In this document: positions 50,969 to 54,929 of the stretch, piece by piece | Layout: the number at the start of each line of letters is the position of its first letter | How positions within the stretch are numbered: position 1 is the first letter of the stretch | Assembly (NCBI GenBank): GCA_965248535.1 | Contig: CBDFJR010000005.1 | Coordinates: 1,888,001 to 1,952,000 of the forward strand | Direction: 5' to 3' | Source of the DNA: Phormidesmis sp. | Lineage (GTDB): Bacteria; Cyanobacteriota; Cyanobacteriia; Leptolyngbyales; Leptolyngbyaceae | DNA: 64,000 bases | Program-made: the position numbers and the translations under genes | The notes under the pieces: model-generated | What the model saw: the letters and a program-made list of their open reading frames with translations, nothing else | Told to the model about the DNA's origin: nothing | Database searches by the model: none

Positions 50969-50995
50969 AAGCTGCTCACAAGGGGCAGCTTTTTT
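50969..50995 (+). terminator. Rho-independent terminator after rpmA
   Basis: AAGCTGCTC-loop-GGGCAGCTT followed by a T run. Confidence 0.8.
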
Positions 50996-51035
50996 ATGAG
51001 GTGACTGGCAGATTATTCTCCCAGAATTTAGTCAT

Positions 51036-51071
51036 CCTTTACAGTTCGTAATCACTCTAGTGAGCGATCGC
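51036..51071 (+). repeat. 36-bp direct repeat, left copy
   Basis: CCTTTACAGTTCGTAATCACTCTAGTGAGCGATCGC, identical to 54894-54929. Confidence 0.95.
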
Positions 51072-51275
51072 TAGAGATGCTGCACTACGGTAGAGGACAA
51101 AACGAGTGGGTTCGGCATCAAGAATACTGGCGATTAAGGCGACAGCTTGGGTTTCTTGCTCAAAAGCTTGGCGCGCCAATTGTGTAGCCTTCTCTAGAGC
51201 ACCTCTTAAACGAGCGACTACTGCGGCTTCGGCTAAATCCATTGCTTGTTGGTGGAGCACTTGAATCTGGCTCAT
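51057..51275 (-). pseudogene. Cassette-borne helical hypothetical protein, probably 3'-truncated
   Basis: Begins 46 bp past the attC core; its last codons and stop lie inside the 36-bp repeat. Confidence 0.55.
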
Positions 51276-51320
51276 TGGGGTATGCCATTTTGAACTCTTT
51301 GAGACATGGATTGAATGGCG

Positions 51321-52100
51321 ATCTAACGGCTAAAGTGAGCGGCGGCAAGAGGACTAGAACGAAGCGCAAAGGCTATGTATCGTCCGCTCCACTATGTGTC
51401 CGCCCAGCATGGGCGTGAACTAATGGGGTGAAAGTCCCCTGTCGGAGAACCAACGTCCAAAGGAACCCGAAAGTTCCGAGTGACGACAACGACTAGCTTA
51501 AGGCAAGGGCGTTTCCGCGAGGAAGGGTCTGAAGGAAGCTGGAGGCAAACCTGCGAACTGACGGACAGAAACGTCATAGAAGGCTAAGATTCCCGTGGCG
51601 AGTGAGCACAACATCACAAAGCCTTTTGGTTCAGGGAACATAGTAAATGACGCGGTTGTGCAGGGACATTCACGGTCTTATCTGGGGAGATCTGCTCAAA
51701 GGGCGGTTTGGGATTTTATGGGAGTCGGACTGAGGGCGATTTGGAAACGAATCGACAACCCACCGAACCCTACGGAAACCTAAGCAGCGCGTCTAGCGGC
51801 AACGCTAGAGGTAATTGAGCAGAAGTCAGCAGAAGCCATAGTAGCCAAATGCTCATCGTCATGGGTGAGACAGGGTGAAGGGCTGAACGTCAGAGAGCAG
51901 GGAGGAGCCGTAAAGCTCGACGGGGCGATGAACCCGGATGGGGGAGCTAACTTGTCGGCGCTTAATTGCGTCACCAGCCCTGGACATCAATTCTTTGGAG
52001 TTGAAGGGTCTAAACCTCTTTGAGGAAGCGCCCCGTGCGGAGCCGCACGCGGGGTGCTGTGGGAGCGGGGGGAGAAAATCCCCTTGCTACCCGATTAGAC
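51321..52100 (-). other. Integron attC site (about 82-84 bp when rejoined), split by a group II intron
   Basis: Minus strand rejoined: R'' GTCTAAC, L'' AGTGGAGCGG (one extra base), L' CCGCTCACT, R' GTTAGAT. Confidence 0.85.
51398..52095 (+). mobile_element. ORF-less group IIC (attC-targeting) intron, about 698 nt
   Basis: 5' GTCCGCCCAGCATGGGCG; domain V GAAGCGCCCCGTGCGGAGCCGCACGCGGGGTGCTGT; domain VI ending ACCCGAT; no RT ORF; 5' end may be 51398 or 51400. Confidence 0.9.
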
Positions 52101-52149
52101 GCCGTCAGTTACGCAGAATTCCCTGAGTACATGCACGGTATTGGTGCTA

Positions 52150-52818
52150 TTAATCAATAATTACCCTAAAGGTCAAATTGATTCTCGGTTCTACCTTTCT
52201 AGATGTTTTTGGAATTTGATGCTGCCAGAAATGCTGAGTCTCACCAGCCATCAGAAGAAAACTACCATGTGTTAGCTCAACTTCCGCCTTCAGATCTTGG
52301 TCTTGCCTATGCCGAAACATAAATCTTCTTGCTCCTCCGAAACTGACAGAGCCAATTACAGGATTTTCACCTAATTCTGGCTCTGCATCTGTGTGCCAAG
52401 AGATACCATCATTTCCATGACGATAGAGATTCAGCAAAACGCTGTTGAACTCAACCTCTGAAACCTCTTCAATACGCTGCTTCACTTGCAGCAATGTTGG
52501 TGTCCAAGGTTCAGGATCGAGGTGAATACCTGAGAAGGTGTACGATTTATCCTGATCACCATACCAAGCAGTCTTTCGCGGCAAATTGATCTCTTTGCCA
52601 TAAAGCTTCATCTTGTCTTGCCGCCAGTTAATCTCATTCAGCAAGATCTGGAAAATTTCGTTGCTTCTTTGCGAGTCGAAAAAGTTTCGGTAGAAAATAA
52701 CCTTTGCGTCTGGCATAGGTAGGACTTCTCTGACTAATTCATCCTCGGCACTTGTGACCGACTCAAAACCGGAGAACAAGTCCCCTTGAGAAACATTTAC
52801 GGCAGACTTCCTTCTCAT
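52150..52818 (-). CDS. AlkB-family (ALKBH2/3-like) 2OG-Fe(II) dioxygenase
   Basis: 'PRKTAWYGD', 'FNSVLLNLYR.GND...WHTDAE', 'WQHQIPK', 'RINLTFR'. Confidence 0.92.
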   Translation of the reverse strand: MRRKSAVNVSQGDLFSGFESVTSAEDELVREVLPMPDAKVIFYRNFFDSQRSNEIFQILLNEINWRQDKMKLYGKEINLPRKTAWYGDQDKSYTFSGIHLDPEPWTPTLLQVKQRIEEVSEVEFNSVLLNLYRHGNDGISWHTDAEPELGENPVIGSVSFGGARRFMFRHRQDQDLKAEVELTHGSFLLMAGETQHFWQHQIPKTSRKVEPRINLTFRVIID

Positions 52819-52830
52819 AAAGACTTTTCC

Positions 52831-53637
52831 TCAGCTTTGAATCAGGTTCACAGTGAATTGCCTCTCGCATACACCTATTCTACGCTCTTCATACCTTCCG
52901 GTTTTGAAGTAGAACACTTTTTTATAAATCGGCTCCTCAGAAACCACTGAGTTGTAAATTCGACCGGACTGCGAGAACAAGTCATAGAAGTTACTTAATC
53001 TATATCTACGATCGTTATCTGGACTTGTGCAGATAAATCGATTTAAGCCTCGAAAGGAACCAATTATCAACTCGTGTAATTCGTCTAAACTAAACGCTTC
53101 TACATCAATAATGTTTGAGAAAAGGTGAACCTTGATGCTATCCATATCAGAAATCAAATCGCTAGGTTGCAAGTCATCTATGTACTTACTAATTCTACGT
53201 ATGGTAGGAGTAGCATAGGCTTCAGATTGAAGCATTTGACAAGCGAGGTTGTAACCGCGCTCCAACGCTGTAAGCGAAGGCTCTACAAGCGTAATCGAGA
53301 CTACTTCGGGCTTGAGCTTACTCTCGATGAAGTAGTCAATCAAAACACAGGTCGCCAATGCTTGACCACATCCCCAGTCAATGATCTCCAATTTTTTGCC
53401 GTCAGTATAGTGAAAATTAGTTGAGGCAAAGGCTGCATAAAGTTTGTGAAAATGATGCCCACCGTAAAACGCTACATACTGGTCGCATTTTGCCTCGCTA
53501 TCCAACACTGCCGTACCATTAGCTAAAGCACTGAGAACATTTTGAACATTTTGTATATTCTTGCACTTTTCTATGCAGGGCTTGTAGATGCCATCGATAA
53601 ATCTCATGATCCCTTCTTCTGAGTTCGAGATGTTCAT
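52831..53637 (-). CDS. Class I SAM-dependent methyltransferase-like protein
   Basis: 'IIDWGCGQA' motif I, 'TLVEPS', 'HLFSNIIDV'. Confidence 0.6.
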   Translation of the reverse strand: MNISNSEEGIMRFIDGIYKPCIEKCKNIQNVQNVLSALANGTAVLDSEAKCDQYVAFYGGHHFHKLYAAFASTNFHYTDGKKLEIIDWGCGQALATCVLIDYFIESKLKPEVVSITLVEPSLTALERGYNLACQMLQSEAYATPTIRRISKYIDDLQPSDLISDMDSIKVHLFSNIIDVEAFSLDELHELIIGSFRGLNRFICTSPDNDRRYRLSNFYDLFSQSGRIYNSVVSEEPIYKKVFYFKTGRYEERRIGVCERQFTVNLIQS

Positions 53638-53786
53638 GTAGAAGGCTCAAAAAATGTAAGACTTCTATCGGCTAGACTGCCCAAGCTACCTTCTAGATTA
53701 AACAATTACTTCAGTGATGGTTCTCCAGATTCTCAAATGTCAGGATTGCACAAGGCTGAAGTGGCAATCTCACCAACAACTCAGGC

Positions 53787-53950
53787 GTATAACTACTATT
53801 TCTGCCGTTTGAACTCCTATCAAACAGGATAAATGCCTCTCTCAGAGAAATTATGCCGTATGGAAACCGGATAACTCCCATTTTTTTAGGAATCATCCTG
53901 AATTCTCACAGGATAACTCTCCACTTTCGGGTAATTATACGGAATGGCGC
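53787..53950 (-). other. Cassette entry core site (GTTATAC) plus three 42-bp-periodic dyad sites
   Basis: GGATAA at 53827/53869/53911; inverted T(T/C)AT.C at 53851/53893/53935. Confidence 0.7.
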
Positions 53951-54072
53951 TCAGGTTTTTCGATTCTAAGGGAGCCGCGAGTAAATTGTCTCGTTCCGAT
54001 GAATCAGTCATGGCGCTGAGTCGATCGAGTCCCTGCCGTTGCTCGACTGGAACATAAATTAGGGAGAGTTTA

Positions 54073-54125
54073 CGATCGCCCCCCCTCTTCCACAAAACCC
54101 GATCGCTTCCCTCCCCCACAAAAAT
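54073..54125. repeat. Two imperfect 27-bp tandem units (CGATCGC...CCACAAAA)
   Basis: Seen directly. Confidence 0.5.
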
Positions 54126-54394
54126 CACCATTCCAAAAAACAAAAAACTCTAGTACAATACACCGCAGTGATGGAGTTATGCCCCGAAGCCTGATCTACC
54201 AAATCAGACTCCGAGGACTTCCATCCCTAGTTACCGACTAGTAACTTAGGAGGCGTTCATGATTGTACACCGACAGCTTTGCTATGGGATCTTGAAAGGC
54301 TGGAATCAAGATCCTGCATACAGATTTCCCCCCAACCCAATGTCTGAGAGATCCGTGTTTTTGTCCTCTTTGAATTAATCGAGAGGACAAAACT

Positions 54395-54766
54395 ATGGGA
54401 GTTAGGACGATCGTGCCTAGCTCGATTTCGTTCACCGTTGAGTTACGTTGCTCAATCGAAAAGCGTTATCGAGTCAGTGTTATTTTGGATTTGCAAGAGC
54501 GTTATATTTTCATTCCCTCTGGTGTTATCTCAGACATTAGTGATGTCATTGAAGAGTTTGTGTCTCAGTTAAGTGAGATCGCGTCTAATCAACTGGCATT
54601 CTTGAAATGGGACGGTACGAGTGATTTAACGACGGAGTATCAGATTGTTCGAGTGTTGCCGGGATATCAAGTTGAGCGATCGTTAGCAAAGTTCAACATT
54701 GTCATCGGCAGTGGTTCACTGATTCAAGTGGAGGAGTTGCACGACAAAATCATCATTCAACTCTAG
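54395..54766 (+). CDS. Hypothetical protein
   Basis: 123-aa ORF with GAGGA RBS, inside the island. Confidence 0.6.
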   Translation: MGVRTIVPSSISFTVELRCSIEKRYRVSVILDLQERYIFIPSGVISDISDVIEEFVSQLSEIASNQLAFLKWDGTSDLTTEYQIVRVLPGYQVERSLAKFNIVIGSGSLIQVEELHDKIIIQL

Positions 54767-54893
54767 ATAAAGGGAACGATCGCGAAATTACCTTTTTGAA
54801 GGCTGACCGAAATTAAGCGATCGTTCCTTAATCATCTGAAGGGCTAACATTTTAGATTGAATAGGATGAATCCTCGATCTCATTCCTAATCAC

Positions 54894-54929
54894 CCTTTAC
54901 AGTTCGTAATCACTCTAGTGAGCGATCGC
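54894..54929 (+). repeat. 36-bp direct repeat, right copy
   Basis: Identical to 51036-51071. Confidence 0.95.

Follow-up and report, generated by a model that had tools for sequence, protein, structure and literature searches.

What is a group II intron devoid of a reverse transcriptase (RT) gene doing inside an integron attachment site (attC) of a cyanobacterial chromosome, and how could it have got there? The question is raised by a 698-nt element found at positions 51398–52095, on the forward (+) strand, of a 64,000-nt stretch of Phormidesmis sp. (contig CBDFJR010000005.1, positions 1,888,001 to 1,952,000), the whole of which is referred to below as the window. From the DNA letters and their open reading frames (ORFs), an original prediction had proposed an ORF-less group IIC intron inserted in the R'' box of an attC, and our analysis confirms the observation that a group II intron without an RT gene lies inside this box. 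The reading that we consider quite probable is that the element is a structurally intact ORF-less intron of the IIC-attC lineage, which would have entered the R'' box by an RNA-mediated route, with an intron-encoded protein (IEP) supplied in trans. The genome that holds the window is coded G000, and the related genomes named below bear the codes G007, G010, G014, G015, G016, G018, and G035.

In the 64-kb window, only three matches exceed the Rfam gathering thresholds, and all of them fall within the 698-nt element:

51511–51677, + strand: RF02001 (group-II-D1D4-3), 124 bits (cut-off 32)
51788–51883, + strand: RF01998 (group-II-D1D4-1), 60.2 bits (cut-off 35)
52026–52095, + strand: RF00029 (domain V/VI), 49.3 bits (cut-off 40)

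These three matches bear out the identification as a group II intron, and the details that had been read from its ends stand as well. The domain V triad is CGC in the RF00029 alignment (model positions 4–6), and domain VI leads to the intron 3' end, CTACCCGAT, whose last base is 52095. A CGC instead of an AGC triad is a trait of class C introns. The 5' end, with its first base at 51398, is GTCCG as stated, and the C at position 3 is private to the window copy, every other copy as well as the class 1 integron intron described below starting with GTACG. The estimate of about 700 nt without an RT was also correct: the longest ORF within the element encodes 64 amino acids (aa), and genome-wide searches with RVT_1 and GIIM detected no RT or maturase domain in the window. 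Chance resemblance is excluded by the Rfam scores, together with the 10 places found by BLAST in the genome and the covariation reported below.

Removal of the intron joins GT (51396–51397) to TAGAC (52096–52100), which restores, as predicted, the sequence GTTAGAC, the complement of GTCTAAC and hence of an R'' box (RYYYAAC). On the minus (−) strand, which is that of the neighboring genes, the attC boxes read GTCTAAC and GTTAGAT, in agreement with the R'' and R' consensus sequences RYYYAAC and GTTRRRY, and the internal L box is made of GTGGAGCGG and CCGCTCAC, with one extra base. The two parts into which the intron splits the site are the following, IBS standing for intron-binding site:

51318–51397, − strand: larger part of the attC (R', L', loop, L'', and the first two bases of the R'' complement), matched by the attC model and with the architecture of the other occupied sites; viewed on the + strand, it is the 5' exon hairpin ending in ...CACTATGT
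52096–52105, − strand: rest of the R'' box (TAGAC on the + strand) with a flanking GCC that pairs with an upstream GGC; its first base, T, is IBS3; the 3' exon, which on the + strand would be joined to CACTATGT if the exons were ligated, reads TAGACGCC

Directly upstream of the insertion point, the L-box stem formed by GTGAGCGG and CCGCTCCAC ends 5 nt before the junction, as a stem-loop that replaces IBS2. A strict attC regular expression was dropped because it returned only 17 sites, many of them spurious, and hidden Markov models (HMMs) were used instead. A first attC HMM, seeded with the intron-flanking sites, that of the window included, and with four empty look-alikes, recovered 38 sites in the genome at E ≤ 0.01, including the arrays located beside both integron integrase (intI) genes (TIGR02249, 467.9 and 466 bits; cut-off 265), in the expected bottom-strand orientation. 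An HMM rebuilt without the window site recognized it with an E-value of 6.3e-12, and with an E-value of 4.5e-8 when its near twin was removed too, in the matching orientation. The site is the sole match of this leave-one-out HMM in the window, where HMM searches found no second attC, and no integrase gene lies near it. Without its intron, the attC folds as an R box and an L box with one extra base (−15.2 kcal/mol). On the intron-sense strand, this base belongs to the 3' arm, and the two spacers differ in length (7 vs. 3 nt); the same extra-base arm and the same asymmetry are found in the attC of catB3, in a class 1 integron with a known IIC-attC intron. No T-run follows the hairpin on either strand. 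The number of GTCTAAC motifs in the window (9, for 4.5 expected) was reached in 5 of 100 shuffles and is uninformative. As the intron is on the + strand and the neighboring genes are on the − strand, an insertion in R'' antisense to the flanking genes, which the original prediction had put forward, agrees with the junction, with the leave-one-out HMM and with the gene strands. Its phrase "the cassettes" was overstated, because the window attC is not part of a cassette array. Judged from its sequence, the site is a lone attC, located in a strain-specific island.

If the element is, or was, mobile, one would like to know how many copies of it exist and where they reside. BLAST of the 698 nt against the genome found 10 places, the window copy included. 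Six of them are ORF-less copies of 700 nt each, which occupy six different sites, are 85% identical to the window copy, and show no difference from one another in any of the 15 pairwise comparisons. A further ORF-less copy of 691 nt at C2:609290 (84% identity) is decayed and damaged at its 5' end, and an RT-bearing relative matches only positions 1–447 of the window intron, with 76% identity. The last place is a 132-nt fragment (L010, G000:C2:378130–378261, minus strand), 96% identical to intron positions 443–574 and with no adjoining attC match, whose sequence may be taken as evidence for a second, destroyed copy of the window sublineage. Full-length ORF-less copies thus number at least eight in the genome, among which the window copy is, by its sequence, a second, 15% divergent, and structurally intact sublineage of the family. 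BLAST for other ORF-less copies and for an RT-encoding parent had been proposed with the original prediction, and the element proves to be neither single-copy nor parentless. In Logan contigs, the depth within 51398–52096 is more than 10 times that of the flanks in runs X1 and X2, which only restates this multi-copy status. The nine occupied sites of G000 have flanks that differ as far as the intron boundary on either side, and all nine share the architecture RYYYAAC...AGCGG...CCGCT...(T)TGT/T, where the slash marks the insertion point. The window site reads ATGT/T, the eight others end in TTGT (TTG for the copy at C2:609290), and the 3' exon begins with T at all nine. Three copies, two of which belong to the six-copy set, are found within the arrays adjoining the two intI genes and run antisense to the cassettes.

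The family extends beyond this genome. A match to the 698-nt element was obtained in 18 of 41 related genomes, and near-full-length ORF-less copies are present in G000, G010 (nine copies), G014, G035, G015 (in which the 5' part is missing), and G007; the family spans at least five genera of two families. The nine copies of G010 differ by 0–4 nt and occupy nine different attC-like sites, with flanks that differ up to the intron ends; the upstream exons end in GTGT (four sites), TAGT (two), or TTGT (three), and a T starts the downstream exon in nine of nine. The G007 copy is 95.2% identical to the window copy (630/662) and is located in another attC. This copy forms a twintron (L016/L046, G007:C509), as another group II intron, of about 2.2 kb, separates its positions 662 and 663, between domains V and VI; the insert starts with GTGCG and encodes a 546-aa RT, only 31% identical to the IIC-attC type. 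In an even, phylum-wide sample, G000 and one other of 401 genomes matched the 3' 298 nt, a figure that is a lower bound because scoring was limited to the two best candidates of each genome. Five places of the family are also found in the plasmid collection, in a named cyanobacterial record, the best of them with 86.7% identity over the whole query. Separately, a 2,087-nt contig of an ice metatranscriptome (X19) aligns to 51415–52098 and represents a related ORF-less copy, with 66 differences over about 600 nt and different flanks; its occurrence in an RNA library is no proof of transcription, as such a library can contain DNA.

The choice of target can be followed in the intron itself, which contains a stem-loop assignable to exon-binding site 1 (EBS1):

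51602–51617, + strand: EBS1 stem-loop, with GTGA (51602–51605), loop GCACAACA (51606–51613), and TCAC (51614–51617)

This is the exact position at which an EBS1 candidate had been pointed out. In eight aligned ORF-less copies, the loop is invariant and the stem covaries, GTGA/TCAC and GTTG/CAAC being found in four copies each and two of the four stem pairs (212:223 and 213:222) being compensatory. The RT-bearing relatives again have GCACAACA as the homologous loop, which in the class 1 integron intron reads GCACAAGA. Its ACAA(C) (51608–51612) is complementary to an IBS1 of sequence (G)TTGT, and the 5' exons do end in (T)TGT at nine of nine sites in G000 and at seven of nine in G010, the other two being TAGT. 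IIC-attC introns are described as inserting in the R'' box on the bottom strand of the attC, at a consensus TTGT/T (IBS1/IBS3) and against the direction of cassette transcription (PMC7923331; PMC3001079).

Does the element still fold as a ribozyme? The same eight ORF-less copies, which come from five genera (alignment A1), yielded an RNAalifold consensus of 216 pairs. The proportion of paired cells is 96.7%, compared with 38–45% when the partners are slid by 1–3 columns and 91.1 ± 0.4% after shuffling. Pairs changed on both sides number 55, compared with 8–15 after sliding and 24.6 ± 3.0 after shuffling, and none of 500 shuffles reached 55. The consensus was derived from the alignment on which it was tested, which favors the structure, but the margin is large nonetheless. 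We assigned the following domain boundaries ourselves from the consensus fold, those of domains II and III being tentative:

51403–51686, + strand: domain I, RNAalifold helices 2–14, with compensatory changes; RF02001 covers 51511–51677
51687–51827, + strand: domain II (tentative), helices 15–19, 17 of 50 pairs changed on both sides
about 51829–51876, + strand: domain III (tentative), inside the RF01998 match
51888–52025, + strand: remnant of domain IV, with a Shine-Dalgarno (SD) sequence, an ATG followed by six IEP codons, and an invariant hairpin
52028–52057, + strand: domain V, RF00029; helix 33, pairs 699:728 and 706:721 changed on both sides
52061–52092, + strand: domain VI, RF00029; helix 34, four pairs changed on both sides

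Domain VI has a bulged, unpaired A at 52089, 7 nt from the 3' end. The Rfam models and folding had been proposed as checks of the original prediction, which a failure of domains I–VI to fold would have refuted; three models pass their thresholds, and a six-domain fold supported by covariation was obtained. Of the 216 consensus pairs, 213 are kept in the window copy, despite 15% divergence from the six-copy lineage, and the decayed copy at C2:609290 has 10 broken pairs in addition to small deletions. The window copy has nine private changes at otherwise invariant columns (eight when gaps are omitted; 12 in the recently active six-copy lineage by this gap-omitting count), two of which, at positions 68 and 77, compensate each other. 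With its pairs kept and two of its private changes compensating, it looks like a member of a ribozyme lineage that evolves on its own under selection, and not like a fossil in decay, the private A-to-C change at position 3 being the exception.

The origin of the element can be traced in domain IV. Intron positions 431–549 align to the RT-bearing intron of G000, over the end of domain III, the 5' strand of domain IV, the SD sequence, and the start of the IEP gene. What is left there is the SD sequence GGAGGAG (51901–51907) and an ATG (51928–51930) followed by six IEP codons, after which the similarity stops, to resume only at domains V and VI; the remnant IEP frame closes after 31 codons. Because domain IV keeps the SD sequence, the ATG, and six codons of a lost RT gene, the element is a deletion derivative, from which almost all of the IEP gene has gone, and of the two origins initially envisaged, that of an internal-deletion derivative is borne out by these remains. 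The RT-bearing relative of G000 is not its direct parent, since the two are only 76% identical over the 5' 447 nt. The old start codon is surrounded by a hairpin (51913–51963, helix 26), whose nine basal pairs are all invariant in eight of eight copies. In Ll.LtrB, the IEP binds domain IVa, and by analogy we infer that the domain IV hairpin may have been kept as a docking site for a helper RT.

As to lineage, the 5' 512 nt of the element are 69% identical (E-value 4e-42) to an intron of plasmid NZ_CP031121.1, which lies in antisense orientation between the catB3 and qacEdelta1 genes of a class 1 integron with blaIMP-4. This intron has the start of the family, GTACGCCCAGCATGGG, follows an exon ending in ATTGT/, and terminates in CTACCCGAT/TAGAC; its first 300 nt are alignable throughout with the family. 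In a pairwise comparison, the product of its ltrA gene is 52% identical to the RT encoded by the RT-bearing relative in G018, an intact protein of 444 aa. Membership in the IIC-attC group has been defined by a monophyletic clade of IEPs (PMC3001079), a criterion inapplicable to an ORF-less element, which we would file in this lineage on the homology of its ribozyme and on its target. The class originally assigned to it, an ORF-less IIC-attC intron, is therefore supported by ribozyme homology, shared termini, and the R'' target.

How would an element with no protein of its own have entered an attC? In the scheme that we favor, the intron RNA would be bound by a related IEP supplied in trans, and the folded bottom strand of the attC would be recognized as a 5'-exon hairpin. 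EBS1 (ACAA, 51608–51611) would then pair with the (A)TGT that ends the exon, EBS3 would pair with the T that begins the 3' exon, and the RNA would reverse splice into single-stranded DNA, before being copied into DNA. Mobilization in trans is something that we infer about the past, as the only mechanism fitting the precise junctions. Because the R box is split by 698 bp, the integron integrase could no longer fold or cut the site, and the cassette would as a consequence be locked in place. An intron in antisense orientation to the flanking genes would also not be spliced from their mRNA.

Where might the helper be? In G000, there is a single match to GIIM, and there are two to RVT_1. The gene with GIIM is that of a 1,997-nt intron (L011, G000:C2:1673018–1675014) inserted in another attC (GTTGT/T), and its IEP frame is broken by a frameshift near codon 120, owing to an imperfect tandem duplication. 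The second RT (L013, G000:C2:2381100–2382220) is a retron-type protein of 373 aa without GIIM, with RT-Protease_XI (5.5e-134) as its best PADLOC match, and a 279-aa protein that weakly matches TPR precedes it. As the sole group II IEP gene is frameshifted, the window copy is probably stranded now, unless an outside helper arrives. Of the proposal that the element is a non-autonomous ribozyme mobilized by an RT in trans, the first part stands, the family being multi-copy and evidently mobile; the trans helper is still deduced, with no intact group II RT in the assembly.

Several observations weigh against the scheme outlined above. The first concern the helper: searches with GIIM and RVT_1 revealed no intact group II RT in the G000 assembly, and no intact cognate RT was found in the other five genomes that bear ORF-less copies, four of these assemblies being fragmented. 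In G010, the cognate RT gene (L034/L042, C1:2201130–2211013) is split, codons 3–108 lying about 8 kb away from codons 104–443, and has an in-frame TGA; the insert contains, as an aside, a 405-aa ORF on the opposite strand. The cognate RT is reduced to fragments with several stops in G014 and to fragments only in G015 and G035, and G007 has no RT above 31% identity to the cognate type. Intact cognate RTs do occur in G018 and G016, genomes in which no ORF-less copy was found. The only RT-bearing relative within G000 itself is the distant one mentioned above (76% identity over the 5' 447 nt). Other points concern the target. The exon end of the window site, ATGT, allows only three contiguous EBS1–IBS1 pairs, a number shared by the four GTGT sites out of nine in G010, which likewise offer only xTGT. 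The fold of the reconstituted attC is modest relative to shuffles (z −1.6; 20 of 300 shuffles as good), and the 5' part of the attC folded alone does no better than shuffles. A third set concerns the element and the data: the window copy has the private A-to-C change at intron position 3, the six copies could owe part of their identity to the polishing of repeats in the assembly, and no Logan contig bridges an empty attC or ligated exons, although contigs cannot show splicing.

Part of these observations would fit a dead relic, that is, a fossil insertion that no longer splices or moves at an inactive locus, and this is the rival that survives best, unlikely as we consider it to be. The private change that turns GTACG into GTCCG, the absence of an intact group II RT from the genome, and the status of the window copy as the only full-length representative of its sublineage in G000 are all in its favor, as are the terminator-like hairpin that follows rpmA upstream on the sense strand (50969–50991) and the lack of any sigma-70-like promoter on either strand of the intron in a simple scan. 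Decay in place would, however, break pairs, and 213 of 216 are kept at 15% divergence, with two of the nine private changes (68 and 77) forming a compensating pair; true decay, as seen at C2:609290, takes the form of 10 broken pairs and small deletions. Moreover, the same sublineage occurs in another attC of G007.

It is less likely still, and in our view improbable, that the family is kept for a host function, for example that of a cassette-freezing switch, or that of a donor of an outward promoter to the downstream gene, such as has been reported for S.ma.I2. Such a role would account for the persistence of the family in at least five genera of two families while the cognate RT genes decay, as well as for the invariant domain IV hairpin, and outward promoters have been reported for IIC-attC introns (PMC3001079; PMC8876359). 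Against it, the minus strand of the intron yielded no promoter-like site in the simple sigma-70 scan, the distribution is patchy (at least 2 of 401 genomes in the phylum-wide sample), and an IEP docking site explains the invariant hairpin equally well.

A spread at the DNA level instead of retrohoming, by integrase-driven cassette shuffling, homologous recombination, or gene conversion, appears very improbable. It could draw on the two integron integrases and on the lack of an intact RT, and gene conversion would also give identical copies. But the flanks differ up to the intron ends at nine sites in G000 and nine in G010, with junctions that are always (T)TGT/T or TAGT/T, complementary to the EBS1 loop, and an IntI crossover would move whole cassettes and not a precise unit of 698–700 nt. 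The crossover made by IntI takes place in R', not in R''. Equally far-fetched is the last rival, namely that an ordinary group IIC intron sits in a terminator-like or other palindrome that is not an attC, as might be suspected from a sole attC-like site in the window with no integrase nearby, from an unremarkable hairpin stability, and from the ability of IIC-attC introns to target terminators too (PMC7923331): the leave-one-out HMM, which also covers the attC sites of the intI arrays, recognizes the site at 6.3e-12 in the matching orientation, R'' and R' boxes are present, the extra base of the L box is in the same arm as in the catB3 attC, and neither strand has a T-run after the hairpin.

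What would RNA-mediated movement with a trans helper imply more broadly? The target and orientation of IIC-attC introns were already known (PMC3001079; PMC7923331; PMC8876359), and the descriptions are of RT-bearing elements, for the most part from integrons of proteobacteria (PMC3001079; PMC7923331). Group II introns without an ORF are likewise known in bacteria, where they are described as rare and usually accompanied by related IEPs (PMC4424553); in its accessible portion, a survey that counts ORF-less introns does not use the word attC (PMC8919778). Our literature search returned no description of an ORF-less IIC-attC intron or of a cyanobacterial one, which is weak ground for a claim that none is in print. 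A 700-nt ribozyme that homes to hairpins with a trans helper would be a natural two-component system for the study of IIC target recognition, would let one ask which part of domain IV the IEP needs, and would be a factor able to immobilize integron cassettes in environmental bacteria. A bolder extension, which we regard as possible but doubtful, is that of a long-lived, multi-genus "mini" IIC-attC lineage, a non-autonomous attC parasite whose ribozyme and docking hairpin are under selection, which outnumbers its autonomous relatives and persists beside broken RTs. If so, helpers would be acquired horizontally or from other intron classes, and many attC sites of sedentary cyanobacterial integrons, lone ones included, would be frozen.

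The attC and its intron are part of a 3.86-kb island (51072–54886), inserted between rpmA and hemB and bounded by a 43-nt direct repeat at both ends. In four of the five same-genus relatives in which the rpmA locus was found (seven searched), rpmA is directly followed by hemB with one copy of the repeat region, and in the fifth no hemB match was obtained within the fetched locus. Because rpmA abuts hemB in these four relatives, the island is a strain-specific insertion. Its genes are mostly on the minus strand and none of them encodes an integrase. The features that accompany the attC are:

51029–51071, + strand: left 43-nt direct repeat (repeat family D4, 95% identity)
51057–51275, − strand: 72-aa ORF downstream of the attC, no family match
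52150–52818, − strand: 2-oxoglutarate (2OG)-Fe(II) oxygenase of the AlkB superfamily, a cassette-like gene upstream of the attC (PF13532, E-value 9.8e-38)
54887–54929, + strand: right 43-nt direct repeat, 95% identical to the left copy

Among PADLOC models, CARF_2OG is matched by the oxygenase over its 2OG half (4.3e-57), and AlkB equivalog models score far under their cut-offs for the same product. Within 52150–53637 (− strand), the oxygenase is followed by a 268-aa protein with a weak methyltransferase hint (PF13679, E-value 0.016, below cut-off). A loose end at 51071 in run X2, which continues as the sequence after 54929, was considered as an island-free allele and rejected, since a contig of the second 43-nt repeat looks the same. 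Many short repeat families of the window share the recurrent palindrome GCGATCGC, which we take to be the cyanobacterial HIP1 signature.

Among known systems, the closest are the IIC-attC introns themselves, of the S.ma.I2 type and including the intron of NZ_CP031121.1, which share with the family the GTACGCCCAGCATGGG start, the CTACCCGAT end, the EBS1 stem-loop, and the xTGT/T insertion in the R'' box of the attC bottom strand. The known members have an IEP gene and measure about 1.9–2.0 kb, whereas the window element has no IEP gene and measures 698 nt. Unlike the class 1 integron intron, it resides in a cyanobacterial chromosome and in a lone attC, belongs to a multi-copy family with near-identical copies, and begins with GTCCG. 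The ORF-less introns of Thermosynechococcus elongatus resemble the family by their cyanobacterial host, by the RT-bearing relatives found alongside them, and by their proliferation within a genome, which occurred with IEPs acting in trans (PMC2882425; PMC4424553). The window family differs from them in being IIC-attC, in targeting a DNA hairpin, and in having its only cognate RT gene broken. The T. elongatus introns are reportedly chloroplast-like/IIB and home to sequence-defined sites. C.te.I1 of Clostridium tetani is also ORF-less and resides in a genome without an intact group II IEP, but it is single-copy and splices from a host gene, whereas the window family is multi-copy, intergenic, and antisense, with a broken cognate IEP gene present (PMC4424553). 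Finally, and by analogy only, the family recalls deletion derivatives of the kind of miniature inverted-repeat transposable elements, which have lost the enzyme gene, retain the parts needed in cis, and exceed their autonomous parent in copy number; unlike these DNA transposons, the window family would be RNA-mediated and based on a ribozyme.

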